This document shows, in pieces, positions 3,102-63,247 of a stretch of DNA of 64,000 bases. A model generated the notes under the pieces. It saw only the letters and a list, made by a program, of their open reading frames with translations. It was not told the origin of the DNA and ran no database searches. The position numbers and the translations under genes were made by a program. The DNA comes from Betaproteobacteria bacterium (GTDB taxonomy: Bacteria > Bacillota > SHA-98 > UBA4971). Location: the NCBI GenBank assembly GCA_050260395.1, contig JBLNCC010000058.1, positions 3,466 through 67,465 on the forward strand, given 5' to 3'. Within the stretch, counting starts at the first letter, position 1. Each line of letters opens with the position of its first letter.

Positions 3102-3308
3102 CTAAGTGGGGGTGCAGAAATGCTCCCGACTTTTGGGCGATGGGAGAGGTTGCCGGTGACTGCACGAGGGGTGTCAAAATCCGGCCACCAGCGGGCCGGG
3201 CCGGATTTTGGCGAAGCGCGCCCCGCCTGCGGCGCCGTCCCCGAGTGCAACACCGGCAACCCGGCAACTACTGGAAATGGGGCAAGGACTAACGCATCCT
3301 CACATAGG
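3102..3308 (+). repeat. ~200-bp TIR-bounded structured interspersed element, copy 1 (full length)
   Basis: Starts cc-TA-AGTGGGGGTGCAG and ends GCATCCTCACA-TA-gg. Near-identical to copy 2. Lies in the convergent intergenic gap between the YjjX-like and AbrB-like genes. Confidence 0.9.
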
Positions 3309-3318
3309 CCCCTTCACG

Positions 3319-3594
3319 CTACTGAAGAATTCGTCGCTCCACCGGCCTCCGGGCAATCTGTGCCTGCTCTAGGTGGGTCATGGCGAGCTTCTGCGCCTCG
3401 ATCTTTCCGTGGCGGGATCTCACTATGAGCTTGTCCCCCGCTGCCAGCCTGTGCTGGCTGAGAAGGTCTTGGGGCAGGGCGATCCTGCCCTTCTTGTCGA
3501 TCTCCAGGATGTATTCGGCCACCGCGCGGCGCGCCTCCCGCAAGTTGTTTTCACGAGCGTGACGCAAAGGTCCCAGGTCTTCTTCACGGGCCAA
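3319..3594 (-). CDS. AbrB/SpoVT-type (looped-hinge helix) DNA-binding domain protein
   Basis: 'KKGRIALPQDLLSQHRLAAGDKLIV' resembles the SpoVT/AbrB/MazE fold signature. Start uncertain. Confidence 0.5.
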   Translation of the reverse strand: MAREEDLGPLRHARENNLREARRAVAEYILEIDKKGRIALPQDLLSQHRLAAGDKLIVRSRHGKIEAQKLAMTHLEQAQIARRPVERRILQ

Positions 3595-3742
3595 GGTCGG
3601 TACCTGTAGTATTGTCTTCGCGCCTGGACGTATTCACCCCCGAAGCTGGTTGGGAAAGTGCCGCTCCGTTCCCCTCGACTCGACCGACGCGAAGGCATAA
3701 AATCTCGTTCTCGTGGCACCCTTTTGGGTGGAGGTGATGAGA

Positions 3743-4057
3743 ATGGGCAGGATAACTGGGGTGAAGTGCACGGTGAGTGAGTGCGCTTACTGGGGCTCGG
3801 GAAACGTGTGTGAGGCTGACGCCATCGAGGTGGACAGGAATTCCGCCTTGCGAGGCGGGGCAAGGGACTCCGGCATGGAAGTCGGCCGAATCGGTGAGCG
3901 CGGGGAAGCCCGCGGCCGCGCGCGCGCGACCGATGTGGAGGTCGGGCGAATCGGGGAACGGGGCGGCGCCGCGGCCGGAACCGAGTTCGCGGTTTCGGCG
4001 TCGGAACACACCATGTGCAAGACGTTCAAGCCCAAAGCCGCCGGGTACACTCGGTGA
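3743..4057 (+). CDS. DUF1540-family small Cys-containing protein
   Basis: 'VKCTVSECAYWGSGNVCEADAIEV' and C-terminal 'HTMCKTF' fit the DUF1540 pattern as recalled. GGAGG sits 8 nt before ATG 3743. Internal duplication '(M/V)EVGRIGERG'. Confidence 0.6.
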   Translation: MGRITGVKCTVSECAYWGSGNVCEADAIEVDRNSALRGGARDSGMEVGRIGERGEARGRARATDVEVGRIGERGGAAAGTEFAVSASEHTMCKTFKPKAAGYTR

Positions 4058-4214
4058 CCCTCCCTCCTAATCTTACCGGTCTTGCCGGCGGCACGACGAC
4101 TCAGCCGTAGAGCAACACAATGAGTGCCGGCAGCCGGGCGCGGACCTCGCGCCCGGCTAGCTCGTCTTGAGCGCCTGCCGGGGCTCCGCCGCCCCGCCCG
4201 CTCCGCCGGTGTCG

Positions 4215-4243
4215 TTGACACGCTTTGGGTCCAGGAATATAAT
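4215..4243 (+). promoter_or_regulatory. Perfect sigma-A/sigma-70 consensus promoter (TTGACA-17-TATAAT)
   Basis: TTGACA at 4215-4220, 17-nt spacer, TATAAT at 4238-4243. Predicted TSS about 4250, roughly 9 nt before repeat copy 2. Confidence 0.7.
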
Positions 4244-4258
4244 AGCGGCGCAGGAAAT

Positions 4259-4464
4259 CTAAGTGGGGGTGCAGGAATGCTCCCGATTTTTGGGCGATGG
4301 GAGAGGTTGCCGGTGATTGCACGAGGGTGTCAAAATCCGGCCACTGGCCTGGCGGGCCGGATCTTGGCGAAGCGCGCCCTGCTTGGGGCGCCGTCCCCGA
4401 GTGCAGTACCGGCAACCCGGCAACTACTGGAAACGGGGCAAGGACTAACGCATCCTCACATAGG
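4259..4464 (+). repeat. Structured interspersed element, copy 2 (full length), inside the speE 5' leader
   Basis: tc-TA-AGTGGGGGTGCAG ... GCATCCTCACA-TA-gg. Lies between the consensus promoter and the speE RBS (4481-4489). Confidence 0.9.
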
Positions 4465-4496
4465 GTCCAACCCAAGACGAAGGAGGAGGCGGTGAA

Positions 4497-5381
4497 TTGG
4501 AACTCTGGTTCACCGAACGGCAGACCCCGGGCATGGCGTTGTCTATGAAGATCGCCCGGACCATCCACCGCGAAACGAGCAAGTACCAGGACGTTGCGGT
4601 TCTCGAGACCGTCGACAACAAGAGGGTGCTCGTGCTCGACGGGTGCGTGATGACCACCGACCTGGACGAGTTCGTGTACCACGAGATGATCGCCCACGTG
4701 CCGCTCTGCACCCATCCTTGCCCCAGGAAGGTCCTCGTGGTCGGAGGCGGCGACGGCGGCACGATTCGCGAGGTCCTAAAGCACGGGTCGGTGGAGAGCG
4801 CTGTGCTCGCCGAGATAGACGAGGGAGTCATCGAGGCGAGCCGCCGGTACCTTCCTCACCTCTCCGGCTCCCTTCAAGACCCTAGGTGCCAGATAATGGT
4901 GGGCGACGGAGCCGAGCACGTGAAGTCGCATCGCGAGGAGTACGACGTCATCATTTGCGACTCCACAGACCCCGTGGGCCCTGGAACCGTGCTCTTCTCT
5001 GAAGACTTCTATCGCGCTTCGTACGCCTCCCTCACCAGCGATGGAGTGTTCTGCGCCCAAATGGAGTCGCCGTTCTTTTATGGCGAACTCATAAGGCGCG
5101 CCGTTCGCGAGCTTCAGCGGGTCTTCCCCATCGTGCGGCTTTACCTCGCCGTGGTTCCGTCTTACCCGGGGGCGTTGTGGAGCTTTGTGCTCGCGTCGAA
5201 GAAGCACCACCCGGTCCGGGACGCGCGGGTCGCGAACCTGAAGACGCGTTACTACACGCCGGAGGTCCACAAGGCCGCGTTTGTCTTGCCGAAGTTCGTC
5301 GAGGAGCTTGTAAAGCCCCAGGACCCGTCGGGCATGCCGGGCGCGCCGGTCCCGCAAGGCCAAGGGTCCGCGGGCCCGTGA
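4497..5381 (+). CDS. speE: Spermidine synthase
   Basis: 'ELWFTE', 'SKYQDVAVLET...LVLDG', 'DEFVYHEMIAHVPL' and 'VLVVGGGDGGTIREVLKH'. AGGAGGAGG sits 7 nt before the TTG start. Confidence 0.9.
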   Translation: MELWFTERQTPGMALSMKIARTIHRETSKYQDVAVLETVDNKRVLVLDGCVMTTDLDEFVYHEMIAHVPLCTHPCPRKVLVVGGGDGGTIREVLKHGSVESAVLAEIDEGVIEASRRYLPHLSGSLQDPRCQIMVGDGAEHVKSHREEYDVIICDSTDPVGPGTVLFSEDFYRASYASLTSDGVFCAQMESPFFYGELIRRAVRELQRVFPIVRLYLAVVPSYPGALWSFVLASKKHHPVRDARVANLKTRYYTPEVHKAAFVLPKFVEELVKPQDPSGMPGAPVPQGQGSAGP

Positions 5382-5405
5382 GCGGCCGCAAACGGGGGTG
5401 ACGCG

Positions 5406-6030: not shown

Positions 6031-8080
6031 GTGCGCCGAAGGAAGCTTGCCATCGTCGGGACCCCCAACGTCGGCAAGAGCGTGCTCTTCAACGTCCTCA
6101 CGGGCGCGTACGCCACCGTGTCCAACTACCCCGGGACCACGGTCGAGGTTTCGCGCGGCCTCGCCAGGATTCGCGGCATCCCGTTCGAAGTCATAGACAC
6201 ACCCGGCACGTACTCACTAGTGCCCATGACCGAAGAGGAACGCGTCACGCTTTCGCTTCTGCTCGCTGAGGAAGTCGATGTCGTGGTACATGTGGTGGAC
6301 GCGCGCAACCTCCGCAGGATGCTTCCGCTCACCTTGCAGCTAATCGAGGCCGACCTCAGGCTGGTCCTCGACGTGAACATACTGGACGAGGCGGAGCGCA
6401 TAGGGATATGGATAGACATCCCGGGCCTCGAACGCGAGCTCGGTGTGCCTGTGGTCGGCACTGTGCTCACGCGCGGTTTCGGGGTGGACGTCCTGATGGA
6501 TAGGGTGGCTGGATGTGTCCAGGGCATCTCGAGCGTTTCCGGGGTCTCCGGCATCGCGGGTGCCTCCGGCATCCCGGGCGCGTCGGGCATTTCGGGCATC
6601 CGCGGCACTCCCCGCCTCACCTGCGCTCGCCTCGGAGCGTATCGTGGGCCCGATAGCACGCGCGGCGCGCGAGATCGAGGCCGAGCTCCACGGGCGTTAC
6701 TCCATGTCCCGGAAGGCCATCGCGCTCTTGCTCCTTTCCGGCGCGAGGGATGTGCACGCTCTCGTGCGTAGCAGCGAAGGGCGCGAGCGTTACGAGCGGA
6801 TCCGCGCGATCGTGGAGTCCACCGCAAGCCGCTGCGACCTCCCTCTATCATACGTCATCGGCCTCGAGCGGCAGGAGAGAGCGGACCTCATCGCCCGCCG
6901 CGTGACCAGGACGGCCCCGCGTCAGGGCCAGGACCGGAGCCGGGCCGCGCGGGTTCTGGATTTCGTGACGCTTTTCCCGCCGACGGCTGTCCCGCTGCTT
7001 CTCTTGGTGCTCTACTTTGGGCTGTACCGGTTCGTGGGAGCGTTCGGCGCCGGCACCCTCGTGGACTTCTTTGAAAGGCGAGTGTTCGGCGAGATCGTGA
7101 ACCCCGCCGTGAACGCCTTCGTGGCGCGGCACGTAAGCAGCGTTGCCTTGAGGGAGCTTGTCGCCGGCGAGTACGGCTTTATCACGCTGGGGCTCCGCTA
7201 TTCCGTGGCGATCGTGCTCCCCATCGTGGGCACGTTCTTCCTGATGTTCTCGGTCCTTGAGGATACCGGTTACCTGCCGCGGTTGGCCCTCATGGCCGAT
7301 GCCGCTTTCAAGTTGGTCGGCTTGAGCGGACGCGCGGTGATCCCGATAACGCTGGGCTTCGGCTGCGGCACCATGGCTACGATGGTGACGCGCACCCTCG
7401 AGACCAAGCGGGAGCGGACGATTGCCACCCTGCTCCTTGCGCTTGCGGTGCCGTGTTCGGCGCAACTCGGCGTGATCTTGGGGATGCTTGCGACGAGGCC
7501 GCGGGCCCTTCTTCTGTGGGCTGGCGTAGTGGGCGGAACCTTCCTGGCCGCCGGGCATGCGGCCTCGCGCCTCATTCCGGGGGAGAGGCCGGTCTTCTAC
7601 ATGGAGATCCCCCCGCTCAGGGTGCCGGTCGCCTCGAACGTGCTCGCCAAGACCTTCACTCGCATGAAATGGTATTTCTTCGAGGTGATGCCGCTGTTCA
7701 TGGGCGCAAGCCTCGTTATCTGGCTTGGCAGGATGACGGGCTTGTTTCAACTCGCGCTCAAGGTGCTGGAGGTCCCGGTGAGGCTCATGGGCCTTCCACC
7801 GGAGGCCGCATTCGCGTTTCTATTCGGGTTCTTTCGGCGGGATTACGGTGCGGCGGGGCTTTACGACCTGGCGAGCGCAGGCAAGTTGACCAGCTCCGAG
7901 CTTGTCGTGGCGTGCGTGGTCCTCACGTTGTTCGTCCCGTGCGTGGCCCAGTTTGCCATGATGTGGAAAGAACACGGCTGGCGCGTGGCGCTGGGCATCG
8001 CGGGACTGGCCGTGGGAGTCGCCTTTGCCTGGGGCTGCGCGCTCAATCTCATCTTGACGTGGAGCGGCGCGGTGTTATGA
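6031..8080 (+). pseudogene. feoB: Ferrous iron transporter FeoB, reading frame interrupted (+1 shift needed around 6540-6635)
   Basis: The G-domain ('LAIVGTPNVGKSVLFN', 'DTPGTYSL') is in the frame of ORF 5866..6771. The helical and membrane domains ('ERIVGPIARAAREIE...', multiple TM segments) are in the frame of ORF 6515..8080. The switch follows a GVS-GIA-GAS-GIP-GAS-GIS-GIR-GTP repeat. Confidence 0.6.
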
Positions 8081-16924: not shown

Positions 16925-17068
16925 CTGGGGACTGGCATAACCATTCATCAGGAAGGGCCCGCGGCCGGGCTCGACGCCTTGCACAGGCACGGAGTGGACG
17001 CCGGGTGTGAGCTCGGGACGTTTCCCGATCATCTGGTTATGGGCAGGACGCATCCTCGGGGGTCACAC

Positions 17069-17266
17069 CTAAGTGGGGGTGCAAAAATGCTCCCGACTTT
17101 TGGGAGGGGTTGCCGGTGATTGCACGAGGGGTGTCAAAATCCGGCCACTGGCCCCGGGCCGGATTTTGGCGAAGCGCGCCCCGCTTGGGGCGCCGTCCCC
17201 GAGTACAACACCTGCGACCGAGCCACCGCCGGAAATGCGGCAATGACTTGCGCACCTTCACACGGG
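17069..17266 (+). repeat. Structured interspersed element, copy 3 (3' third diverged), immediately upstream of the yabP RBS
   Basis: cc-TA-AGTGGGGGTGCAAAAATGCTCCCGAC... matches the 5' 140 nt of the family consensus. The 3' end 'GCGCACCTTCACA' is degenerate and has no TA. Confidence 0.85.
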
Positions 17267-17277
17267 AGGGAAGAGGG

Positions 17278-21477: not shown

Positions 21478-22263
21478 ATGATCCTTGTACTGGACATCGG
21501 CAACACCAACATCGTTCTGGGGGTTTACGAGAACACACGCCTCGTGGCAAGCTGTCGCATAGCCACCGACCGGCTAAAGACCGCGGACGAGTACGCCATG
21601 GTCATCCGCGACCTCTTTTCGTACCACGGCCTTGACTTTGGCGCGATAAGCGGCGCTGCCATCTCATGCGTCGTGCCCCCTGTCATCGGCACTTTCGAGG
21701 ATCTTGTCAGGCGCTATTTCCACTGTGAGCCCGTGGTCGTGGAGCCTGGGATCAAGACCGGCATAGTCATACGTTACGAAAACCCCAAGGAAGTGGGGGC
21801 GGACCGCATCGTCAACGCCGTGGCGGCTTACGAGAAGTACGGCGGCCCCGTGATCGTGGTAGACTTCGGCACCGCCACGACGTTTTGCGCCATATCCGCG
21901 TCCGGCGAGTACCTGGGTGGGGCCATCGCGCCTGGCATCGGCATATCCAGCGAGGCCCTGTTCGCACGCGCCGCAAAGCTCCCCCGCGTCGAGCTGGTGA
22001 AGCCAAAGTCGGTCATCGGGCGCAGCACAGTCGCGAGCATGCAGGCGGGCATAATCTACGGGACGGTCGGGCTTGTGGACGGGATAGTGAGGAGGATGAA
22101 ACTCGAGATGGGAGGCGACGCCCGCGTGGTCGCGACCGGGGGCTTCGCGCCGCTCATCGCGGAGGATTCGTCCGAGATAGACGTGCTCGAACCCGACCTC
22201 ACCCTGGAAGGCTTGCGCATGATCTTCGAGAAGAACGCGCGGGTGCCTGAGCCTTCGAACTAA
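21478..22263 (+). CDS. coaX: Type III pantothenate kinase
   Basis: '[17 protein letters not shown]', '[11 protein letters not shown]' and '[10 protein letters not shown]'. Confidence 0.95.
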
Positions 22264-22475
22264 GTATGAGGTCATGAGACTGTTGATGTTTCCCACAGTC
22301 CTCGCCTCTTTTCCAGCAGTTGCCGGGTTGCCGGTGTTGCCCGCCGGGGACGGCGCGCTTGCGGCGCGCCTCGTTCGAATTTGGCGCGCGGGCTAGCCAA
22401 ATTCTCGACGCCCCGTCGTGCAAGCACCGGCAACCCCTCCCAAGAGTCGGGAGCGTTTTTGCATCTCCACTTAGG
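22260..22475 (-). repeat. Structured interspersed element, copy 4 (reverse orientation, most diverged full-length copy)
   Basis: The reverse complement reads CC-TA-AGTGGAGATGCAAAAACGCTCCCGACTCTTGGGAGGGGTTGCCGGTG... and ends ...CCTCATACT-TA-G. The coaX stop TAA (22261-22263) lies in its terminus. Confidence 0.85.
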
Positions 22476-22534
22476 CGGTGCGCTGCGGCTCCCAAAATAG
22501 AGAGAGTCGGCCGTGTCCTTGACGTGTCCTTGAT

Positions 22535-24727
22535 TTGAGGAGTGAGCGGGATCTGAGAAACTCAGGTCAAAAGGTCGAGAGAGCCATAACCGTAGGTCTT
22601 GAGGTGGCTGGCACGCCAGGCTGGGAGGTCGAGGACTCCCTCGACGAACTCGACCGGCTCGCGGCGACGGCCGGTGCCGAGGTGGTCGGGAGGGTGGTCC
22701 AAAAACGGACGTCGCCTGACCCTGCCACGTACATAGGCGAGGGGAAGGCCCGGGAGATCGCGGCCCTCGCGATCGTGGCCCGCGCTGACCTCGTGATCTT
22801 CGATGACGAGCTCAGTCCTGCCCAGCAACGCAACCTCGAGGAGATCATAGGAGTCAAGGTCATAGACAGGACGTGGCTCATCCTCGACATCTTTGCTTCC
22901 AGGGCCGCGAGCAAGGAAGGCAAGATACAGGTCGAGCTCGCCCAGCTTTCTTACCTGCTCCCGCGGCTCACAGGCAAGGGCGTTGAGCTCTCCAGGCTCG
23001 GCGGCGGCATCGGCACCCGTGGGCCGGGGGAGACGAAGCTCGAGACCGACAGGCGCCGGATCAGGAAGCGCATCGCGGTCCTCCGCGGCGAGCTCGCCGA
23101 GATAGCGGCGCGGCGGGGGTTACAGCGTTCCCGCCGTAAGGAAGCCGGGATGCCCGTGGTGTCGCTCGTTGGCTACACCAATGCCGGCAAGTCCACGCTG
23201 TTCAATGCCCTTACTGAATCGCAGGTGCTGGTGGAGGACAAACTGTTTGCCACCTTGGACCCGACGATACGTAGGTGCCGCCTACCAGGAGGGCAGGTGG
23301 TGCTCCTCGCGGACACCGTGGGGTTCATTCGCAAGCTACCCCACGATCTCGTGGCGGCGTTCCGCGCCACACTGGAGGAAGTTGCCCAGGCTGATGTCAT
23401 CTGTCACGTGGTCGACACCAGTCACCCGGGCAAGGACGAGCAGTGCGCGGCGGTGAACGCGGTCCTCGCGGACCTCGGCCTTCAAGACAAGCCTATGCTC
23501 ACCGTTCTCAACAAGATGGATCTCGTCAGCGGGGAACTCGAAAGAGAACGCTTGCGCGTGGAACACCCAGGCGCGGTCCTGATCTCCGCCGCCGAGCGAT
23601 GGGGCCTGTCTGACCTGCTCCGGGCGGTCGAGGATATGCTTGCCACGAGGGGGCGGCGAAGCGATCCGCAGACCGAGCCCGGTCCTCGCCCGGCCGTTGG
23701 CGGCCCGCACGCTTCGGGTGTCCCCGACTCGGACCGCGGTCGACGCGCCGTGGCCATTGGTGACGTGGGCCTGGCGGCCCCCGTAGTACTCGCGCCCATG
23801 GCTGGGGTGACCGACCTCGCTTATCGACTGCTCGCGAAGGAGATGGGATGCGCTCTGGTGTACACGGAGATGATCTCCGACAAAGCGCTCATCTTCCGCA
23901 ACGAGCGGACTTTCGAGCTTCTGCGGATCTCAGAGCTTGAAAGGCCTGTGGCGGTTCAACTTTTCGGGAGCGACCCCGAGAGCATGGCGAGCGCGGCTGC
24001 GATCGTCCGGGACCGGGTGCATCCTGACATCATCGACATCAACATGGGGTGCCCCACGCCGAAGATAGTCAAGAACGGCGAGGGGGCCGCGCTCATGCGG
24101 GACGTGCCCCTCGCGCAGGATATCGTCGCAGCCGTGGCCGGGGTGGCGGGGGTGCCCGTGACAGTGAAGATGAGGAAGGGCTGGGACGGGGAGCACGTCA
24201 ACGCCGTGGAACTCGCACAGGCGGTCGAGGCTGCCGGCGCGGCCGCTGTGGCGGTGCACGGCCGCACCCGCGACCAGTTCTATTCCGGCGAGGCTGATTG
24301 GAACATCATCAAGGATGTGAAAGGGGCCGTCGGAATCCCGGTGATCGGCAACGGGGACGTCCGGTCGGCCGAGGACGCCGCGCGCATGCTCAAGGAGACG
24401 GGCTGCGACGCGGTCATGATAGGCAGGGCGGCGCTCGGGAATCCCTGGATATTCAGGGAGGTCACCGCCTATCTCGCGACAGGCAGGAAGGTGCCACCGC
24501 CTTCGCTTGCCGAGCGGGTTGCCATGGCCATCCAGCACCTCGACATGATGATCGAGCTTTTCGGGGAGAAAAGCGCCGTCCTTCAGATGAGAAAGCATGC
24601 GGCGTGGTACCTGCGCGGCACTCCCGGCGCCGCCCAGGGCCGGGTGCGGATAAACGCGGCGAAGACCAGGGCTGAGATGGTGGAAGCCATCACCTCGGTC
24701 CTTGCTCGGCCTTGTCGCTCTGTGTGA
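22535..24727 (+). CDS. hflX/dusB: Single ORF fusing GTPase HflX (N-terminal ~395 aa) to a DusB-like tRNA-dihydrouridine synthase (C-terminal ~300 aa)
   Basis: HflX: '[17 protein letters not shown]', '[12 protein letters not shown]', '[12 protein letters not shown]', 'DTVGFI', 'NKMD'. Dus: '[15 protein letters not shown]', '[11 protein letters not shown]', 'VKMRKGW', 'VHGRTR', '[13 protein letters not shown]'. No in-frame stop lies between them. The start codon (TTG 22535) is uncertain. Confidence 0.8.
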
Positions 24728-24918
24728 GGGCGCGTCAGTCATTACCGCATTTCCAGCGGTTGCCGGGTCGCACGTGTTGCGCTAGATGACGGCGCCCTCG
24801 AGCGGGGCGCGCTTCGCCGAAATCAGGCCCATGAGGTTAGTGGCCGGGTTTTCACACCCCTCGTGCAATCAGCGGCAACCCCTCCCAAAAGTCGGGAGCG
24901 TTTTGCACTCCCGCTTAG
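24720..24918 (-). repeat. Structured interspersed element, copy 5 (reverse orientation)
   Basis: The reverse complement reads GC-TA-AGCGGGAGTGCAAAACGCTCCCGACTTTTGGGAGGGGTTGCCGCTGATTGCACGAGGGGTG... The hflX/dus stop TGA (24725-24727) lies in its distal end. Confidence 0.85.
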
Positions 24919-24927
24919 CGACGGAGT

Positions 24928-26700: not shown

Positions 26701-28759
<2,059 letters not shown>

Positions 28760-28810
28760 GGACGCGGAGCACTCCGACTGCTCGCACTCTTGATGGCACT
28801 CCTGATGCAA

Positions 28811-28857
28811 GGCAGGGGTTGCGCGATGCCCAGTCGCGGAGCCCCTGCCTTTTTCTT
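28811..28857 (+). terminator. Rho-independent terminator after lysS
   Basis: Stem GGCAGGGG ... CCCCTGCC followed by TTTTTCTTCTC. Confidence 0.7.
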
Positions 28858-28931
28858 CTCTGAGGGTTCCACGGATAGAAGGATTTCCGGGTTGGGTGGC
28901 GAATCACTTTCCTGTGGGTGAACAATTGTGC

Positions 28932-28945
28932 TGCACATATGTGCA
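28932..28945. promoter_or_regulatory. Perfect 14-bp palindrome TGCACATATGTGCA (candidate operator)
   Basis: Read directly. Lies just upstream of the regulator RBS (AAGGAGGG) and its GTG 28959 start. Confidence 0.5.
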
Positions 28946-28958
28946 AAGGAGGGTCTCA

Positions 28959-29903: not shown

Positions 29904-29957
29904 TGAAGCGTGGCAGGCTGTACACTCCGTATCTGAGCTCAACTGGAGGTGTCTTTC

Positions 29958-30575: not shown

Positions 30576-30629
30576 GGGCGCCGCCAGCGAGTTCCAGCCA
30601 GTTCACGCATAGCCGCAGTTGGTGAAGAG

Positions 30630-33235: not shown

Positions 33236-33238
33236 GGT

Positions 33239-38606: not shown

Positions 38607-39829
38607 TGACGTTGAGCTTGTTCTTGTGGGGGTGGGGGTACGGCCTTTACGCCTACGTCTTTCCCCTGTACATACGGTCACTGGGCGCTTCGCCGGGGCA
38701 GGTTGGGGTCGTCTACTCCGTCATGATGGTCGCCTTGGCTTTGTCGTACATCCCTGGTGGCGTCATCGCGGACAAGTACGAGAGAAAGCGGACGATGATT
38801 CTTTCCTGGCTCGTTGGGGTTCCGGCGCCTCTTCTGTACTATTTCGCCCGGGACTACAAGGTTGTCGCGGCCGCATCGGCGCTTTACTCGTTGTCCATGA
38901 TAGGCTACCCCGCGATGAACGCGTACGCAGCGACGAGAGCGCCGGCGGGCATGTCCGGCCTCGTGTTCGGCGTCATCAACTCCGGTTATGCAGCGGGAAT
39001 GATAGCCAGCCCCATATTGGGTGGATGGCTTGCACAGGTAATCGGCACGCGCAACGTCTTCCTTATCACGTTCGTGTTTTTCCTAGCTTCCGTCGCTGTG
39101 CTGTGTCTTGTTGACCAACAGGCGCCAAGTGCTTCCAGCTCTCATGGTTCAGCCCATACAGAAGACGCAGCAGCAGGCTACGCAGGTCTTCTGCGGCAAA
39201 AGCGATTCGTGAGGTTTGTAGTCACGTACTCATGCATGGCGGTTGCCTACTACATGATCCAACCTCTCATACCCCAGTACCTTGGGGACGAAATGGGAAC
39301 GAGCTTCGCGTTTATAGGGCTCACCGGCTCCATTATGTCGCTGGGTCAGGCGGTCATAACGGTCATACTCGGTCGGTGCGCGGATAAGTGGGGTACCGTT
39401 GTTGCTCTTGGGGGCAACGCGCTCGTGTTCTCCGCTGCCATGCTGGGCCTCGTGACGGTACGAAGCCTTGTGCCGCTCGCTGGAGTTCTCTTCTTCGCAG
39501 GCGCATTCATGGCTGGACAAGGGGTTGCACTTGCCGGCGTCGGAGAGGTTCTCGGTGGGTCGGCCACGGGGCGTGCTTTCGGGCTTTTCAATCTGGCGGT
39601 CGCCACAAGTTCGATCATCGGGCCGTACGCTGGTGGGGTCTTGTACGAGCGGTCTTCGGCGGCGCCCTTTCTTGCATGCGGAGCAGCGTTCGTGGTGCTG
39701 TCCCTGGTCTTGTTCTTCAATGAACGCGGACCACACCACAATGAGGAGGTGGTTCATGCTGGAACACCTGCGGGTTTGGACGATTCTCCGTCAACCAACT
39801 CTTATCTAGGAGGGACAAGAGATGCGTAG
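38585..39829 (+). CDS. MFS transporter
   Basis: 12-TM pattern with 'GGVIADKYERKRTM' (MFS loop 2-3 motif). The start overlaps the end of the FGGY gene. Confidence 0.8.
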   Translation: MPRDIKLMTLSLFLWGWGYGLYAYVFPLYIRSLGASPGQVGVVYSVMMVALALSYIPGGVIADKYERKRTMILSWLVGVPAPLLYYFARDYKVVAAASALYSLSMIGYPAMNAYAATRAPAGMSGLVFGVINSGYAAGMIASPILGGWLAQVIGTRNVFLITFVFFLASVAVLCLVDQQAPSASSSHGSAHTEDAAAGYAGLLRQKRFVRFVVTYSCMAVAYYMIQPLIPQYLGDEMGTSFAFIGLTGSIMSLGQAVITVILGRCADKWGTVVALGGNALVFSAAMLGLVTVRSLVPLAGVLFFAGAFMAGQGVALAGVGEVLGGSATGRAFGLFNLAVATSSIIGPYAGGVLYERSSAAPFLACGAAFVVLSLVLFFNERGPHHNEEVVHAGTPAGLDDSPSTNSYLGGTRDA

Positions 39830-40340
39830 GACTTTCATCTGGTTCGTGATCATCTGTCTCGTTGCGGGCATTGCGCCTATCGGTTTCGCTGAGACGCCAA
39901 AGCCTGCGGGGAAAGTGGTGCTTACTGTAACCGGAGATATCACGGTCAAGAACTCCGATACTGGGTTCGAGTTCGACATGGCGATGCTGGAGGGACTCGG
40001 CCTGACCAAGTACGAAGTCAAAGACCCATGGCTCGGCAAGAAGGTGTATGAGGGAGTCCTCATCAGCACCATACTTGAATACGCTGGAGCGGCGGACACA
40101 GCGGATGAGGTGATCGTCGTGGCGAAGGACGGGAAGAAGGTTTCCGTCAAGGTTGCCGACGCGATCAAGTATCCGATCATGCTTGCGACGAAAGACGGTG
40201 GCAAGGCCATAGGAAGCGGCCTTGGCGGTCCGGTGAAGCTGGTGTTCCCGTACGGTACGCACCCAGAAGTAGAGAAAATCCACGACAAGAATGACTGGAA
40301 CTGGTATGTCGTGACCTTAGAGGTGAAAGCGAAGTCATGA
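39822..40340 (+). CDS. Secreted protein with an oxidoreductase-molybdopterin-binding-like domain
   Basis: Signal peptide 'MRRTFIWFVIICLVAGIAPIGFA', then 'VLTVTG', 'YEGVLISTILEYAG', 'VVAKDGKK' and 'GGPVKLVFP'. Confidence 0.55.
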   Translation: MRRTFIWFVIICLVAGIAPIGFAETPKPAGKVVLTVTGDITVKNSDTGFEFDMAMLEGLGLTKYEVKDPWLGKKVYEGVLISTILEYAGAADTADEVIVVAKDGKKVSVKVADAIKYPIMLATKDGGKAIGSGLGGPVKLVFPYGTHPEVEKIHDKNDWNWYVVTLEVKAKS

Positions 40341-41590
40341 CTTCCGAATGGATTAGGAGAACGTGTGGTGTCTTCTCTGTCCTTCTTGTCTGCTTGCTGG
40401 CGGCCGCCGCGCCTGCGGCCGCCAGCGGAAGCACGCGCGAGGTGCCCCACACCTTAGTGGTGTTGGTCATCCTTGATGGCTGCTCTGCTCAATCGCTGGA
40501 CGCGCTGCCGTCCGAAGCATATCTTAGGCAGGCGGCGGCGGAAGGGTTCTACCAGCACGTGCGGACCGTGTTCCCGTCTTCCACGGCAGCCGGACATGCG
40601 GCCATACTGACCGGCAAGTGGCCCGATGAGAACGGGGTCACAGGCAAACAGTTCATGGGGAGCGACGGGACGCTGAATGGGTTCAGCTCGCCTCAATTGC
40701 TGGAAGCTCCCACAGTGATCGAACGGGCGGCGAAGGCTGGCCTGCGCACGGCGGTGATCTCCGGAAAGGAAGGAGTCAGGGCCCTGTTTGGCGAAGGTGC
40801 GGACCTTGCAGTAAGCCCGGCGGCAGTGCCATCATGGGTGCTCGAAGAGGTCGGGCCTCCTCCGGATGAGTCCACCCAATATGAGGACTACTGCGGCTGG
40901 TATGAGAAGCTCGACAGATGGGTGATCGATGTGGCGGGCGCCTTCGCGAAAGAGGCAGGACCTGGCGCGCTCATTGTGCTCAACCTTGCCGGACCCGACA
41001 AGGTGGGACACAGGTTTGGACTCGTGCCTGCGTCTGAGACCACTCAATGCCTCATCTCGGCGGGAGAGGCTCTTAGCAGGCTGACGGCAATCCTCGAGGA
41101 GGCTGCGGGGGAGGACTGGGCCGTGGTGGTAACCGCAGACCACGGGATGACCAATGTGAGCAAGGCCATTCTGCCAGCAGATCTCCTGGAGGGCATTGAC
41201 GAAGACAACTGTGTATACAGCCTCGACGGCGGCGTCTTGTATGTGTGGCCGACAGCGACAGTAGAAGATGCTGTCGTGACCGCACTCAAAAGCGCTGAAG
41301 GTATAGCCGAGGTGATCACGCTGTCAGATGAAGCACGGGCGCTTCTTCATGCATCGCATCCGAGGAGTGCTCCAGTCATCGCGATAGCGCGCCAAGGTTA
41401 CATGTTCATTGAGTCTGCCGCGTTCATGGAGTATACAAAGGGCAGCCACGGAACGCTTCTTGACACAGACGTGACAGTCCCACTAATAGTGTATGGCCCC
41501 CGGGCGGCTAGAACCGACATCGGCGCAATTAGGGACACGGTGAACATAGCGGGAATACTCGCCGAGTTACTGGGCGGCCTCGAAAACTAG
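40337..41590 (+). CDS. Secreted type I phosphodiesterase/nucleotide pyrophosphatase (alkaline-phosphatase superfamily)
   Basis: Signal peptide, then 'VILDGCSA', 'FPSSTAAGHAAILTGKWPDENGVTG', 'GPDKVGHRFG' and 'VVTADHGM'. ATGA overlap with the upstream gene. Confidence 0.75.
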   Translation: MTSEWIRRTCGVFSVLLVCLLAAAAPAAASGSTREVPHTLVVLVILDGCSAQSLDALPSEAYLRQAAAEGFYQHVRTVFPSSTAAGHAAILTGKWPDENGVTGKQFMGSDGTLNGFSSPQLLEAPTVIERAAKAGLRTAVISGKEGVRALFGEGADLAVSPAAVPSWVLEEVGPPPDESTQYEDYCGWYEKLDRWVIDVAGAFAKEAGPGALIVLNLAGPDKVGHRFGLVPASETTQCLISAGEALSRLTAILEEAAGEDWAVVVTADHGMTNVSKAILPADLLEGIDEDNCVYSLDGGVLYVWPTATVEDAVVTALKSAEGIAEVITLSDEARALLHASHPRSAPVIAIARQGYMFIESAAFMEYTKGSHGTLLDTDVTVPLIVYGPRAARTDIGAIRDTVNIAGILAELLGGLEN

Positions 41591-41727
41591 GCCGAGCGCG
41601 CCGACCGGTTCCAACTGCAGTCGGAACCGCGAGACTTGCCAAGTTTGGAAGCTGCGAGGCCGGCGACGGAGGAGTCGTGAGCAAACGTCGACGGACTTTC
41701 CCGGCTTGTCAACGGACTTTCCCGGCC

Positions 41728-41952: not shown

Positions 41953-42088
41953 GAGCAAAACCTGGCCACCCGACCGGGCGGCCGGGTCTTGTCAAGACGC
42001 CCGCTGGGGGCGGCGCTGTCCCCGAGTCCAGCACCGGCAACCCGGCACCTACCGGAAATGGGACAGGGACTAACGCCCCCTTACTTAG
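41953..42088 (+). repeat. Structured interspersed element, copy 6 (5'-truncated or internally deleted)
   Basis: Matches the family from the central hairpin onward: ...AAAACCTGGCCAC...GGCCGGGTCTTG...GTCCCCGAGTCCAGCACCGGCAACCCGGCACCTACCGGAAATGGGACAGGGACTAACGCCCCCTTACT-TA-G. A weak left-end-like 'GCTTGCGGGGTGG' lies at about 41909. Confidence 0.75.
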
Positions 42089-42936
42089 TCGCGCCGCCCC
42101 CGCTCCACCGGCTCACGCCGCTCGAACGGCACCGGCACGTACTGGACCGAGGGCCGGCGCTGGATAGGCTGCGGGTAAAGCTCCATCAAGCGGTAGACCT
42201 CGTAGGGCATCTCGTTGCTCACGGTGAGCCCCAGGCGCCGCAGCGCGTCGCAGGTGATGGGGTAATCGTGCGTCCAGCGCCCTTCTGTGAGGGTCTTCGC
42301 AATCTCGCGGGCTCTGTCCTCGGGCAGCTTCGCCGCCAGGATCTCGTATACGCTTTCATATACCTGCACCATGGCTTTGGCGGCCATGTCCCCCAGGATG
42401 AGCGTGGTGTCGCTCACGGAGTTCTTGTCCTTTTGCTCTATGGCTCGGAGGATGGACACCGCCGGGTAGTTCCCGAGTTGCGGGTCGACCGGGCCGAGCA
42501 CGGCGTTCTCATCCATGACGATCTCGTCTGCGGCTAGAGCCAGGAGCGTCCCGCCAGACATCGCGTAATGCGGCACGAACACGGTGACTTTCGCCTTGTG
42601 GCCTGCGATTGCGTGGGCGATTTGCTCCGCGGCGAGCACGAGACCGCCCGGTGTGTGGAGGATGATGTCTATGGGGACATCGTCCGGTGTGAGGCGGATC
42701 GCCCTCAGCACCTGCTCCGAGTCCTCAATGTCGATGTGGCGCGAGATGGGGATGCCGAGGAAACTGATGGCCTCCATGCGGTGGATCATGGCTATGACCC
42801 GCGACCCCCTCTTGCGCGACAGGGAGTTGAGGATGTGCAGCCTCGCGAGCTCGACCTTTCGCCTCCCGAACAGGGGCGAGAGGAGGCTCCACACCAAGAG
42901 AAGGATCCAAAAGAGGTTGAAAAACGTGTCGGACAT
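42085..42936 (-). CDS. Membrane-anchored ClpP-fold serine protease (SDH / 'serine dehydrogenase proteinase' family)
   Basis: 'IDIILHTPGGLVLAAEQIAHAI', 'VPHYAMSGGTLLALAADEIVMD' and 'LGPVDPQ'. The true start is ATG 42936; the 544-aa track ORF is read-through across repeat copy 7. Confidence 0.7.
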   Translation of the reverse strand: MSDTFFNLFWILLLVWSLLSPLFGRRKVELARLHILNSLSRKRGSRVIAMIHRMEAISFLGIPISRHIDIEDSEQVLRAIRLTPDDVPIDIILHTPGGLVLAAEQIAHAIAGHKAKVTVFVPHYAMSGGTLLALAADEIVMDENAVLGPVDPQLGNYPAVSILRAIEQKDKNSVSDTTLILGDMAAKAMVQVYESVYEILAAKLPEDRAREIAKTLTEGRWTHDYPITCDALRRLGLTVSNEMPYEVYRLMELYPQPIQRRPSVQYVPVPFERREPVERGRRD

Positions 42937-42971
42937 GTCCGCGCTCTCTCCCGTTCGCGATTCCGAGCTTG

Positions 42972-43162
42972 CTAAGTGGGGGTGCAGGAGTGCTTCCGAC
43001 TTTTGGGAGGGGTTGACGGTGATTGCGCGAGGGGTGTCAAAACCCGGCCACCCACCCGAGGGCCGGATTCTGTCAAGGTGCCCTGCTGGGGGCGCCGTCC
43101 CCGAGTGCAACACCGGAAACCCAGGATCTCTGTGACGTTGACGCATCTGCCCCTGAGTTAAG
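42972..43162 (+). repeat. Structured interspersed element, copy 7
   Basis: gc-TA-AGTGGGGGTGCAGGAGTGCTTCCGACTTTTGGGAGGGGTTGACGGTGATTGCGCGAGGGGTGTCAAAACCCGGCC ... GCCCCTGAGT-TA-ag. The 3' third is diverged. Confidence 0.85.
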
Positions 43163-43362
43163 TTTCCGTCCGGATGGCACGAATATGCGGCCCGACGAAG
43201 GAGCCGACCCCGGGATGGCGCGCCGGGCCGGCCTCCGCTCCCGGAGCCGTCCTTCATCCCGTGCCCTGGGAGATCGTGGTTTCCAGGCGCTTGTGTCTCG
43301 GAAACTCGTGTAGTAGAATTGCATGGGGGGAATGAGCTACAAGCTAATGGAGGGACGAACGG

Positions 43363-44247
43363 ATGGTTGAAAAGGCAACGTTTACCGTCAAGAAAGGCCT
43401 TGCGGAGATGCTCAAGGGCGGCGTGATCATGGACGTCACCACCCCCGAGCAGGCGAAGATCGCCGAGGATGCCGGCGCAGTCGCGGTCATGGCGCTGGAG
43501 CGCGTGCCCGCTGATATCAGGGCGCAGGGCGGCGTGGCCAGGATGTCCGACCCCGCCATAATCGAGGCGATCATGGAAGCGGTCACAATCCCGGTCATGG
43601 CCAAGTGCAGGATCGGGCATTTCGTTGAGGCGCAGATTCTTGAGGCCCTCGGCGTGGACTATATAGACGAGAGCGAGGTCCTGACGCCGGCCGACGAGGA
43701 GCATCACATAGATAAACACCAGTTCAAGGTGCCGTTCGTGTGTGGCTGCCGGAACCTAGGCGAGGCGCTGCGAAGGATCGGCGAGGGGGCGGCGATGATG
43801 CGCACGAAGGGCGAGGCCGGCACGGGCGACGTCGTCGAAGCCGTGCGACACATGAGGCGGGTCATGAGCGAGATACGCAAGCTTACTTCGATGCGCGAAG
43901 ATGAGCTCATGGCGGCAGCCAAGGAGATGCAAGCCCCGTACGAGCTCGTGATGCAGGTTGCGAAGGAAGGCAGGCTCCCCGTGGTGAACTTCGCTGCCGG
44001 CGGCATCGCGACTCCGGCGGATGCTGCTCTCATGATGCAACTTGGTGCCGACGGGATCTTCGTGGGATCGGGCATATTCAAGTCGGATAACCCAGCTGCG
44101 AGGGCGCGCGCCATTGTGGACGCGACGGCACATTATAATGACCCGGACATCCTCGCGAAGGTGTCTCGAGGCATCGGCGAGCCGATGAAGGGCCTTGCCG
44201 CTGCGTCCTTGAGGGAAGAGGAGAGGCTGCAGGCGAGAGGCTGGTGA
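43363..44247 (+). CDS. pdxS: Pyridoxal 5'-phosphate synthase, lyase subunit
   Basis: '[14 protein letters not shown]', '[10 protein letters not shown]', '[11 protein letters not shown]', 'GEAGTG' and 'FVGSGIFKS'. Confidence 0.95.
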
Positions 44248-60313: not shown

Positions 60314-60363
60314 ACCAGGCGCAGAGCGGACATGATCGTTCCAGTTGATGGAGGTGGGAATAT

Positions 60364-62031
60364 ATGAGAAGACGCAGCTGGTTCGCGCGCCCGCAAGTGT
60401 GGGCGGTATCTTCCGTCGTCGTTGCCCTGGTGTGCCTCTTTTCGGTCGGGGCGTTCGCATGCACCACGATACTAGTCTCCCCCGGGGCGTCCGTGGACGG
60501 CTCCGCTTCGGTGACTCAGACCGCCGACTGTGGAATGTGCACGTTTGAAATCGAGAAAGTTCCGGCGAAGGACTGGCCGGAGGGCTCTACCGTTGAAGTG
60601 CCGTTTCTCCCGCAGTTTACGGGCGGGTATCAGATACACGATGTGATGAAGCCTACCGGCGTTTTCATCCCGCAGGTGAAGCACACCTATGGCTACATCA
60701 AAGGGATCTTTGGAATGATCAACGAGAAGCAGGTCGGGATCGGGGAGACAACAACGAGCAACCGTCCTGAGTCGAAGAACAGCAACGGGATCCTGGACAT
60801 CACCAACTTGTCCATGTTCGCAATGGAGCGGGCGGCCAGCGCGCGAGAGGCCATCCGCGTGATGGGTGATCTCGCGGTGAAATACGGTTACAAGGACAAC
60901 GGCGAGGCTCTCGCTGTGTCGGACCCGCACGAGGTATGGTTGTTCGAGATCTCCGGCCCGGGCCCGCTCTGGGAGCCCGGGTGCGGGGAGCCTGGCGCCT
61001 ACTGGGTAGCGGAAAGGGTTCCAGACGGGCACATCGCGTCGTGCTGCAACAACGCGGTCATAAATGTGATCGACTGGGACGATTCCGAGAACTTCATGTA
61101 CGGCCCTGGAATAAAGGAATTCGCCATCGAGAAGGGCTGGTACGACCCCTCGAGCGGCGAGCCGTTCAGCTGGAGGAAGCACTTCTGCAACGCCACCCGC
61201 TACGCCACTTGTGCGAGGCGCGTCTGGCGCATCTTCTCCCTTGCGGCTCCGTCTCTCGCCGGCACGCTCAATGAAGAGGATCTGCCTTTCTCGGTGCCTG
61301 TGGACAAGAAGCTGTCCATAGCTGACATTGCCGCGATCAACCGCGACCACTATGAAGGGACGCCGTACGACGCTACCAAGGGCATCATGGCCGGCCCCTG
61401 GGGCGATCCTCGCAGGAAGGGCACGATACCGCCTATCGATGGAGAGCGCTATGCTTTCCAGCGCATGATTGCCATACCTGGGTGCGAATACAGCATAATA
61501 ACGCAATCCAGGGCGTACCTTCCGGACGAGATCGGAGGGGTGCTCTGGTACGCTCCCGCGAACCCGGACGCCAGCACCTACGTGCCGGTCTACAACAGCG
61601 TCACTAAGATCTCGGACTCCTTGAATACCGAGGCTGGCGACCATCACACGCTCACCCGCAGCTCTTATTGGTGGGCGGTGTCGACTGTAAGCACATACGC
61701 TGACCTCAAATACTCCTACATCATCAAGGACATCCAGGCGGTTCGGGACCAGTATGAGGGGTTTGCCCTCAAGACGCAGGCGGCCATCGACGCGGCGGCG
61801 CTTCAGCTCTATCAGCAGGATCCAGCGCTTGCGGTGGACTTCTTGACGGACTACTGCAACCGGAACGTCGAGGCGGCTCGCGATGCGTATTGGGCGCTGC
61901 TCGACAAGCTCATGTGTAAGTACAACGCGCTCACGATCACCGAGGATGGGAAGATCACCACTCCGACCCTTCCGGCAGAGTGGGTGAGGATGATGATCAA
62001 GTTCGACTCCGGTGACTGGTACAAGCAATAG
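60364..62031 (+). CDS. Secreted peptidase C69-family Ntn hydrolase, paralogue 2
   Basis: 'AFACTTILVSPGASVDGSASVTQTAD'. Collinear with paralogue 1 along its full length. Confidence 0.7.
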   Translation: MRRRSWFARPQVWAVSSVVVALVCLFSVGAFACTTILVSPGASVDGSASVTQTADCGMCTFEIEKVPAKDWPEGSTVEVPFLPQFTGGYQIHDVMKPTGVFIPQVKHTYGYIKGIFGMINEKQVGIGETTTSNRPESKNSNGILDITNLSMFAMERAASAREAIRVMGDLAVKYGYKDNGEALAVSDPHEVWLFEISGPGPLWEPGCGEPGAYWVAERVPDGHIASCCNNAVINVIDWDDSENFMYGPGIKEFAIEKGWYDPSSGEPFSWRKHFCNATRYATCARRVWRIFSLAAPSLAGTLNEEDLPFSVPVDKKLSIADIAAINRDHYEGTPYDATKGIMAGPWGDPRRKGTIPPIDGERYAFQRMIAIPGCEYSIITQSRAYLPDEIGGVLWYAPANPDASTYVPVYNSVTKISDSLNTEAGDHHTLTRSSYWWAVSTVSTYADLKYSYIIKDIQAVRDQYEGFALKTQAAIDAAALQLYQQDPALAVDFLTDYCNRNVEAARDAYWALLDKLMCKYNALTITEDGKITTPTLPAEWVRMMIKFDSGDWYKQ

Positions 62032-62212
62032 CTGCGTCACATCCGTGCGGCAGCCGGGCCCCGCGGTTTGCGAGCCCTTTGACTCAAGCGCCGGGGCCCC
62101 CTGCCGCGCGGACAGCGCGCGTTTTGCCGCCCGGGCTTCCGGGTGGCGGGCGAGGCACATTCCGCTATGTCCTGGTATGAGAGACGGATACCCAACACAA
62201 GGAGGAAATGCG

Positions 62213-63055
62213 GTGAAATCCCGGCGTCTCCTTTCTGCCGTAGCTGTGGTGACAGTTGCACTTTGCTTGTGGCCCCTCGACTTGTCAAACGTGGCGGCCG
62301 TGGCGGCCGCGGCCGCGGAGCCAATCGTCAATATCCAGCTCAACGACGGCGACGAACTGGGCCCTGTGAAGGCGATGATGGACGAGCTTGTGAAACGTGG
62401 GATCAGGGCCACGCTGTGGGTTAGCCGGTCGGACCTCGTGCCCGAGTGGCAGGCGTACCTCAAGGAGATCGTCGGGAAAGGCTGCGAAATCGGTGTGAAG
62501 GCTGATGCGGACATCTCGAAGCTTTCATACGAGGAGCAGGTAGGGCTGGTGCAGCCCATCATGGGGGCGATCAGTGCGTGCACCGGGAAGCGTCCGAAGG
62601 GGTTCAGGGCAACGGGCTTTGCGTGGAACGAGGCCAGCATGGAGGTGGCTGACGAGCTCGGGTTCATGTATTTCATGGCCAGCGTGGGCTCCCCCCCTGG
62701 CGAGTTCGATAGCACTCTCTACTTCCCACCCAAGCACCGGTTCGGCGTGTTCGGTGTTACGAGGGCACTCTATCCCGACGGCACCAGGAACATTCTCTGT
62801 GATGTCCCCGCATCGAGGAGGATGAGCTCAAAGGAGTACCTGCACCTGCTATGTGAGACTCTCGATGACTGCATTGCCACCGGCAAGGCTCTTGTGGTGC
62901 AATGGCATCCGGCCACTATCACTAAGCCCGACCCTGGGAACCCGTGGTGGCAGGCTTTCATCGGGTTCCTGGACTACCTTGAAAGCCGCCGCGGGGAAGT
63001 CTGGTGCGCTACAGGGGAGGACCTCGTGGTATTCGGGACAGCGTGCGACTGCTAA
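62213..63055 (+). CDS. Secreted polysaccharide-deacetylase-like (CE4/NodB-like) protein, tentative
   Basis: Signal peptide 'VKSRRLLSAVAVVTVALCLW', then 'NIQLNDGDE' and 'FRATGFAWN'. AAGGAGG sits 7 nt before GTG 62213. The fold assignment is weak. Confidence 0.45.
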   Translation: MKSRRLLSAVAVVTVALCLWPLDLSNVAAVAAAAAEPIVNIQLNDGDELGPVKAMMDELVKRGIRATLWVSRSDLVPEWQAYLKEIVGKGCEIGVKADADISKLSYEEQVGLVQPIMGAISACTGKRPKGFRATGFAWNEASMEVADELGFMYFMASVGSPPGEFDSTLYFPPKHRFGVFGVTRALYPDGTRNILCDVPASRRMSSKEYLHLLCETLDDCIATGKALVVQWHPATITKPDPGNPWWQAFIGFLDYLESRRGEVWCATGEDLVVFGTACDC

Positions 63056-63247
63056 GCGGGGGCGCAGAAATGCTCCCGGTTTTTGGGAGGGGTTACGGTG
63101 ATTGCACAAGGGGCGTCAAAACCCGGCCATCTGCCCGACGGGCCGGGTTTTGTCAAGGCGCCTCGCTTGGGGCGCCGTCCCCGAGTGCAACACCGGCAAC
63201 CCGGCACCTACTGGAAATGGGGCAAGGACTGACGCACCCTCACTTAG
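63052..63247 (+). repeat. Structured interspersed element, copy 8 (full length)
   Basis: gc-TA-AGCGGGGGCGCAGAAATGCTCCCGG...GCACCCTCACT-TA-gc. The upstream gene's stop TAA (63053-63055) is formed at its left end. Confidence 0.9.

Follow-up and report, generated by a model that had tools for sequence, protein, structure and literature searches.

A probable family of miniature inverted-repeat transposable elements inserting at CTAG in uncultured anaerobic-digester Bacillota

Overview of the repeat family

The window analysed here, a 64 kb stretch of contig JBLNCC010000058.1 (assembly GCA_050260395.1), contains eight related repeats bounded by inverted repeats, which are very probably copies of a previously undescribed family of non-autonomous miniature inverted-repeat transposable elements (MITEs) inserting at the TA of CTAG. 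A non-coding DNA transposon of this size (∼125–210 bp) would depend for its movement on a transposase that is encoded elsewhere and acts in trans. A profile made with nhmmer from the eight copies matches the window at 3096–3313, 4255–4469, 17063–17269, 41955–42091, 42965–43161 and 63044–63253 on the plus strand and at 22273–22481 and 24716–24923 on the minus strand, and nowhere else in it; the copies are numbered c1–c8 by position. A preliminary description of this DNA had listed eight copies, one of them truncated, and these are exactly the ones that the profile recovers. Seven are full length (about 191–209 bp between the flanking dinucleotides) and one is truncated at its 5' end. The 19-mer GGGTTGCCGGTGATTGCAC occurs seven times in the window at up to three mismatches, against 0.03 occurrences expected. 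The element is GC-rich (∼62–65%), like its host (62.6% GC in the window). With genes identified by Pfam, every copy is intergenic and both strands are used; the intergenic positions, together with indels of 7 nt and other lengths, rule out coding capacity. This agrees with the preliminary description, which had also noted the 7 nt indel, GGGCGAT in the alignment, that sets the first two copies apart from the third, seventh and eighth.

Bacterial MITEs have been defined as small (∼100–200 bp), non-coding, multi-copy and A+T-rich elements with terminal inverted repeats and a TA duplication (Delihas, 2008; PMC2229807). The present family agrees with this definition in size, lack of coding capacity, copy number, terminal repeats, target duplication and the existence of filled and empty sites, but not in A+T-richness, which is a common rather than an essential trait of MITEs. 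Although undescribed, the family represents a known kind of element, and the present evidence does not make it a new class of system.

Ends and target site

The ends of the element are sharp (TA/AGTGRGGGTGC...GCACCCYCACT/TA, with slashes at the junctions) and the terminal inverted repeats are 11–14 bp long. Target-site statistics were taken from 81 elements with both termini located. Both flanking dinucleotides are TA in 58 of these, in line with the earlier statement that most ends are flanked by TA. Neither is TA in six, and four of the six have identical dinucleotides in direct, not inverted, repeat (CG/CG, AA/AA, TG/TG and CA/CA); by a rough hand estimate, at least four such matches in six would arise by chance with p ≃ 0.01. 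The base at −1 is C in 74 of the 81 elements and the base at +1 is G, also in 74, so the target is C-TA-G; positions farther out are random, and the flanks beyond C-TA...TA-G are unrelated among copies. At one locus (L040; loci from other genomes carry the prefix L) the flanking bases are G...C, and the usual C and G thus belong to the target and not to the element.

Three sites are empty in a sister species and colinear with left flank, 2 nt and right flank: in L046 compared with L076, in L061 compared with L096 and in L005 compared with L040. The L005/L040 alignment has one gap of 1 nt, and the other two are gapless. The element duplicates 2 bp of its target, normally the TA of C-TA-G.

Insertion into CTAG would often strike TAG stop codons, and the resulting C-TA-A... 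would restore a stop. Four copies in the window touch gene ends (c4, c5, c6 and c8), and in three of them (c4, c6 and c8) the junction TA lies within a stop codon. The TAA stops of coaX (22261–22263, at c4) and of a polysaccharide deacetylase gene (63053–63055, at c8) each consist of the left TA and the first base of the element, while the right TA of c6 lies within the TAA stop (42085–42087) of a minus-strand SDH-type protease gene. Copies probably abut gene ends because a stop-restoring insertion is harmless.

Occurrence in other genomes

Species-representative genomes were scanned with a core pattern of 19 specified bases, which gave at least 106 loci. Among the matches listed, the loci come from 11 metagenome-assembled genomes (MAGs) labelled 'Bacillota/Firmicutes/Clostridia bacterium', the genome of the window not being one of them, and 763 kb from these 11 MAG species holds 175 non-overlapping profile matches (183 with the eight of the window). 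At least 13 genomes at species level, from uncultured Bacillota of anaerobic digesters, contain the family. Four pattern matches in Phycisphaerae and Pseudomonadales MAGs are not matched by the profile and are probably due to chance. A viral origin was rejected, the single match of the viral scan being a chance match in a contig of 32.5% GC. No copy of the element was matched in plasmids, and its diagnostic 16–18-mers were not found in any of the papers searched. A search of the window against Rfam gave only three tRNAs at gathering scores, and nothing at E ≤ 1 over 2900–4700 (c1 and c2), in keeping with the earlier remark that the repeat was not recognised as an Rfam family.

The density is roughly one copy per 5–10 kb, or about one per ∼10 kb after discounting about one selected copy per locus; in a close relative, five copies or stumps lie within 20.8 kb that had not been selected. 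Hundreds of copies per genome are plausible by extrapolation from the densities in related genomes. One host, AS02xzSISU_21 (JAAYXB01), which like MAG-64 (JACIXY01) carries near-identical copies, comes from an anaerobic digester and has been described as a 'Firmicutes sp.' with the Wood–Ljungdahl pathway that made up 32% relative abundance in a reactor fed with Avicel (cellulose) (PMC7038595).

Many MAG contigs start or end within a copy, which indicates that the element breaks assemblies. Contigs edged by a copy include L013, L024 and L066 (match at 71–95) and L010 and L080 (match at 9–33), and further contigs end in a copy at L017, L069, L070, L072, L087 and L099. A run of N lies within a copy at L015:7804–7917.

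Mobility and decay

The closest available relative (R; CoaX 95% identical in amino acids, DNA 87–91% identical) was compared over a 20.8 kb region. It lacks c4, and there the coaX stop adjoins the hflX start; c3 is reduced to its right arm and c5 to one half, and three copies of R stand at places that are empty in the window. In L114 (CoaX 87% identical) no copy is detectable in the 20.8 kb covering the c3–c7 sites, save for a badly decayed remnant at the c7 site, so that c7 is an old insertion. L115 (CoaX 82% identical) has a copy with a gamma-type core directly after coaX, and L116 and L117 have no copy at the compared sites. Near c3, c4 and c5 the intergenic DNA of R and L114 differs from that of the window by larger indels, which leave the absence of a copy visible but not a clean TA. 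The element is thus present or absent at orthologous sites of close relatives and decays by deletion.

Non-orthologous copies are up to 99.5% identical within one genome (L060 compared with L081, both from MAG-64), and this near-identity points to recent transposition. Between species, copies reach 98% identity where the orthologous DNA of the same species is ∼82% identical, which reflects horizontal spread of the family or else a strong constraint acting on its source copies. The 2 bp duplication, the C-TA-G target, the empty sites (a comparison that the preliminary description had proposed) and the differing occupancy in a relative of ∼88–90% identity bear out its proposal of a non-autonomous mobile element with a TA target.

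Modular architecture

The element is a set of nested palindromes, in which a terminal repeat and an arm are followed by an internal inverted repeat of 11–18 bp (GGTTGCCGGTG(A)TTGCAC) and then by either a two-hairpin core of ∼90 nt or a loop of 19 nt. The internal inverted repeat GGTTGCCGGTG/CACCGGCAACC is common to all members. Long forms carry the ∼90 nt core and short forms, of ∼125 bp overall, the 19 nt loop; elements span 125–210 bp. There are at least six types of arm, of 36–52 nt, all of which start with TA/AGT or TA/GGT and are otherwise strongly different. The combination a1-core-a2 is found in 42 long and six short elements, a5-core-a6 in 12 long and one short, and a3-core-a4 in about six; hybrids occur as a2...a6 (two), a1...a1 (two) and a1...a4 (one). 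Neutral-looking loop variants of the core (e.g. CTGCCTAGCC) are found with unrelated arms, which argues that cores have been exchanged between lineages and not merely conserved.

In L071, L106, L020, L002, L055 and the short form L018:1121, which together make three of 56 alpha-type elements and three more, what lies between the internal repeats is flipped with respect to the arms. The asymmetric A-bulge and the GA/GA loop invert with the core, the loop becoming TC/TC. These flipped copies are located at unrelated sites and must therefore still transpose. Core orientation is otherwise fixed by subfamily (a1-A-a2 as against a5-B-a6). At one orthologous site (L005:4362–4567 and L040:3025–3227) the boundaries are the same and the flanks are 94% identical, while the whole element is in the opposite orientation and the cores are 87% identical. 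At another (L063:5572–5786 and L081:805–927) a divergent full-length element faces a short form, and both have the same mutated dinucleotide, CG, on the left. Such differences suggest that copies at orthologous sites are replaced in situ or undergo gene conversion with other copies. Arm shuffling and core inversion might arise where copies recombine, convert one another or switch templates at their nested inverted repeats, possibly during repair following excision. Rare rearrangement of this sort, and not a programmed switch, is the most economical reading of the flips and replacements.

Predicted fold and alternative explanations

From the outside to the centre, the predicted fold consists of an outer stem formed by the terminal repeats with a small hairpin in the left arm, a long stem (GGTTGCCGGTG(A)TTGCAC/GTGCAA(C)CACCGGCAACC) and, inside this, a symmetric GA/GA loop, a GGGG/CCCC helix and a three-way junction with two hairpins. 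The sequence bears out the consensus and every structural feature named in the preliminary description, from the terminal inverted repeats and the pairing of GGTTGCCGGTGATTGCAC with GTGCAACACCGGCAACC inside them to the GA/GA loop, the GGGG/CCCC helix and the pair of terminal hairpins. For c8 the fold energy is −54.7 kcal/mol as DNA (z = −4.6) and, as RNA, −101 kcal/mol for the plus strand (z = −4.7) and −98 kcal/mol for the minus strand (z = −5.5). In a hand-drawn core structure 95.9% of the cells are paired, and 10 pairs are doubly changed compared with 3.0 ± 1.5 in shuffles; most of the double changes are differences between the common core and the gamma core (four sequences), and the covariation term from RNAalifold is only −0.27. 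The central hairpin has an A-tract, a GC-rich 12 bp stem and a T-tract (CAAAAYCCGGCC...GGCCGGRTTTTG) and is symmetric on both strands. Compensatory changes from T-A to C-G are found there in three copies, against seven one-sided changes, which is compatible with weak selection for pairing or with correction of the palindrome. Only two orthologous pairs could be used to assess selection on the core, too few to be informative.

The preliminary description had suggested that the architecture also fits a structured RNA, and the repeats could in principle be non-coding RNA genes or cis-regulatory RNA motifs with the three-way-junction core as the functional RNA. The great stability of the fold, the near-complete core pairing with its excess of double changes, the conserved GA/GA internal loop, a core that is 90% identical across species and the position of c2, which lies downstream of a perfect promoter match and would be transcribed in the speE leader, all speak for such an RNA. 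The suggestion is not supported: the opposite strand folds equally well, the covariation is weak and stems mostly from the split between two core types, the repeats face either way with respect to genes, several copies that continue to spread have a core flipped against the arms, truncation occurs freely in relatives and Rfam gives no match. Correction by template switching can, moreover, keep palindromes perfect without selection, and we consider an RNA function very unlikely. A rather unlikely possibility, and one compatible with a MITE origin and with mobility, is that the host has co-opted the core as a bidirectional terminator or insulator or as a protein-binding cruciform. To judge from its bases (A4-stem-T4 on either strand), the central hairpin resembles a bidirectional terminator, if a weak one; copies are found where genes end and where convergent genes meet, the arms are less conserved than the core, and some of the T-A to C-G changes in the hairpin are compensatory. 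The T-run is, however, only 4 nt and the loop 12 nt, and a terminator scan does not call the hairpin, giving weak matches in arm 1 only; copies also lie upstream of genes or between divergent genes (c2 and c7), orthologous copies have been lost without replacement in relatives and short forms without the core still spread.

The flipped cores raise the question of an inverton, in which a recombinase flips the core between the GGTTGCCGGTG repeats and so switches transcription of the neighbouring genes. In the assemblies compared, the core may point either way with respect to the arms (L071, L106, L020, L002 and L055), and the element is opposite in two species at the L005/L040 site. The flipped copies are nevertheless a small minority, with core orientation fixed per subfamily, and no promoter-like motif was found in the core. 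The inverted copy at L005/L040 is also a different variant (core 87%, flanks 94%), which indicates replacement and not flipping. The short form L018:1121 is flipped with 19 nt between the repeats, too short for looping by a recombinase, and since this 19 bp segment is also found flipped, a recombinase-driven switch is highly improbable. Extremely improbable is an element like REPs (repetitive extragenic palindromes) or REPINs (REP doublets forming hairpins), that is, paired palindromes spread via single-stranded DNA by a RAYT (REP-associated tyrosine transposase, an IS200/IS605-like Y1 enzyme) with mosaics like those of BIMEs (bacterial interspersed mosaic elements). An inverted pair of conserved ∼18-mers that forms a hairpin, mosaic modules, strictly intergenic positions and high copy number would suit it. 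REP/REPIN and IS200/IS605 elements make no target duplication, and the repeats described here have sharp termini, a 2 bp direct duplication and a C-TA-G target; their conserved 18-mers are internal and not terminal, and no RAYT gene was seen beside any copy, although no systematic RAYT search was made.

Some observations weigh against an ordinary MITE. None of the empty sites is a perfect CTAG, their flanks having diverged (A-TC-G, T-TA-G and C-TG-C), and no autonomous element with the same ends was found in the 763 kb of related loci, whole host genomes being outside the search. Conservation is much higher in the core than in the arms, whereas in MITEs it is usually the other way round; the mean column identity of the core is 90% (72 copies from 12 genomes), a value that is inflated because the related copies were picked by the core pattern. 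The difference hints at constraint or at a homogenizing process beyond simple transposition. A possible but unlikely account of it is that the GGTTGCCGGTG(A)TTGCAC repeat and the T-shaped core are the functional heart, moved or copied between pairs of arms by a mechanism that depends on hairpins or cruciforms, which would make the family a new modular type of MITE with disposable termini and an interior under selection. A process like flip/flop, or structure-specific recombination at the internal repeat, might then be at work, and the selected role might be that of a binding platform for the transposase or of a DNA or RNA structure useful to the host. The interpretation as a non-autonomous MITE family inserting at CTAG is the one that we adopt in what follows.

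The mobilizing enzyme

The MITEs would be mobilized by a TA-duplicating DDE transposase, most likely of the IS630/Tc1-mariner type since CTAG is also the preferred target of IS630, in which TA is duplicated; an alternative would be the IS427 group within the IS5 family. As no autonomous element was found, the family of the transposase is deduced from the target site alone. The IS630/Tc1-mariner assignment made in the preliminary description thus fits as far as the CTAG target is concerned, but the scans gave no cognate transposase with matching ends. No inverted terminal repeats 240–3000 bp apart bracket a suitable insertion sequence (IS) in the 763 kb, and the related loci contain no long repeats within a genome and no long unit with the internal repeat at its ends. 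Metagenomes were scanned twice, for arm a1 or a2 without the MITE interior following it, with zero matches; a parent IS was likewise absent from the viral scan (one chance match) and from plasmids. IS copies are often missing from short-read MAGs.

The only pair of inverted terminal repeats ∼1.5 kb apart, in L031 and L077, was considered as the parent IS and rejected: the open reading frame (ORF) that it encloses is common to both loci (94–95% nucleotide identity) and is not repeated within either genome. At L031:1352–2825 and L077:1505–3015 a gene of ∼412–432 amino acids has a truncated short-form copy over its 5' end and a second short form downstream, in the same orientation.

Comparison with known systems

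RUP is a MITE of pneumococcus that inserts at TA, has terminal inverted repeats, is present in ∼100 or more copies per genome and has been proposed to be mobilized in trans by IS630-Spn1 (PMC2229807). The present element resembles it in being small, non-coding and intergenic, in its Bacillota host, in its terminal inverted repeats and in insertion at TA. RUP is, in contrast, 107 bp long and AT-rich with ends that match a known IS, whereas the present element is ∼200 bp and ∼62–65% GC and has nested palindromes, exchangeable arms and a two-hairpin core; no sequence similarity is claimed.

Correia/NEMIS of Neisseria is another TA-duplicating MITE (PMC2229807). The TA duplication and long terminal repeats are shared with it, as are size classes that differ by an internal segment (∼107/∼155 bp there and ∼125/∼200 bp here). 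Both families also come in related variants, have a transcript able to form hairpins, occupy a few percent of the genome and are without an identified transposase. The phylum and the sequence are different, and Correia variants differ mainly in their terminal repeats, whereas here whole arms of 36–52 nt vary around an interior that is nearly invariant and can be inverted.

IS630 shares the TA duplication and the preference for CTAG, comparable to the C and G at −1 and +1 in 74 of 81 elements here. It is, however, autonomous, with ∼1.1 kb and a DDE transposase, whereas the present element codes for no protein; an IS630-like gene with the ends of the element was not seen in the 763 kb of related loci or in the metagenome, viral and plasmid scans. 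The REP/BIME and REPIN–RAYT systems are similar in being high-copy, intergenic and hairpin-forming with mosaic modules, but lack terminal inverted repeats bounded by a duplication and need a Y1 (HUH) transposase, against which the 2 bp duplication argues here. The flip/flop of the parvovirus AAV (adeno-associated virus) is a structural analogy only: a stem encloses two hairpins at a T-shaped junction and the enclosed part occurs in both orientations. In AAV this arises by hairpin-primed replication at the ends of a linear genome, whereas the copies here are internal to the chromosome, flips are rare and no HUH nuclease is implicated.

The individual copies and their surroundings

Genes identified by Pfam in the window (mfd, mazG, yabP, yabQ, coaX, hflX-dus, speE, pdxS and pdxT) mark it as an origin-proximal region of a spore-forming Bacillota. 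Copy c1 (plus strand, full length, arm a1-core A-arm a2) has its body at 3105–3304 between TA at 3103–3104 and TA at 3305–3306, and lies between convergent NTPase_I-T and MraZ/AbrB-like genes. Its arm-1 hairpin contains the 7 nt insertion (GGGCGAT), which it shares with c2 and which is absent from c3, c7 and c8. Copy c2 (plus strand, full length, body 4262–4460, TA at 4260–4261 and 4461–4462) is 35 nt upstream of speE, which starts at 4497. A perfect match to the sigma-70 consensus (TTGACA-17-TATAAT, 12 of 12) at 4215–4243 ends 16 nt before c2; if this promoter is used, the 5' leader of speE would comprise the whole 200 nt hairpin element.

Copy c3 (plus strand, full length, body 17072–17262), between mazG and yabP, is flanked by TA at 17070–17071 and CG at 17263–17264. 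Copy c4 (minus strand, body 22263–22471, TA at 22261–22262 and 22472–22473) has a gamma-type core and lies between coaX and hflX-dus. Its arm carries, at 22276–22296, a 21 nt solo end of a second, unrelated MITE of ∼108–150 bp with terminal repeats GAGACTGTTGA(A/T)NTT(C/T)CC. Insertions of this second MITE into terminal repeats or arms of the first family recur, and they seem to duplicate 5–6 bp, (C)TGCAC; besides 22276–22296 of the window, the sites are L002:6862–6969, L052:2002–2109, L026:2143–2290 and L049:∼7330–7435.

The minus-strand copy c5 (full length, body 24723–24915), between dus and a helix-turn-helix gene, is flanked by TG at 24721–24722 and TA at 24916–24917. The dus frame stops at a TGA (24725–24727) within its terminal repeat, and the C-terminus of Dus in the window differs from that of relatives. 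An HflX GTPase (residues 33–369) and Dus (residues 419–718) are encoded in one frame of 730 amino acids at 22535–24727; a fusion of 730 or 721 amino acids is called in L107–L112 and L116, and Dus is called alone in L114 and L117.

The truncated copy c6 (plus strand, about 41955–42085, right flank 42086–42087) lacks ∼75 nt at its 5' side, and what remains extends from its first hairpin to its right end; it is located 90 nt downstream of a tRNA. Copy c7 (plus strand), between the divergent SDH-protease and pdxS genes, has its left flanking dinucleotide at 42973–42974 and a body from 42975 to about 43140, a right limit that is approximate; its left arm and core are intact and its right arm is decayed. 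A minus-strand ORF at 42085–43719 that seems to span c7 is spurious upstream of residue ∼255, the Pfam match to an SDH-type protease covering the C-terminal part only. A stretch of ∼13 kb at 28754–41719 (from lysS to the tRNA, with ECF/ABC transporter genes down to a phosphodiesterase gene) has no counterpart in L114:17091–17145, where the tRNA, the SDH protease, pdxS and pdxT come immediately after lysS. Copy c8 (plus strand, full length, body 63055–63244, TA at 63053–63054 and 63245–63246) lies between the polysaccharide deacetylase gene and a DUF6305 gene.

Significance

Apart from its conserved and occasionally flipped T-shaped core, the family is an ordinary member of a well-known class. 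It makes up about 2–2.5% of the window and is a main cause of MAG contig breaks in an abundant lineage of biogas reactors. A profile of the family would improve annotation, stop spurious ORFs from being called across copies and provide insertion markers at the strain level. The family is a clear example of targeting to CTAG and stop codons in which the stop is restored, and its module shuffling, inversion and in-place replacement make it a good system for studying recombination at palindromes and selection on the core.

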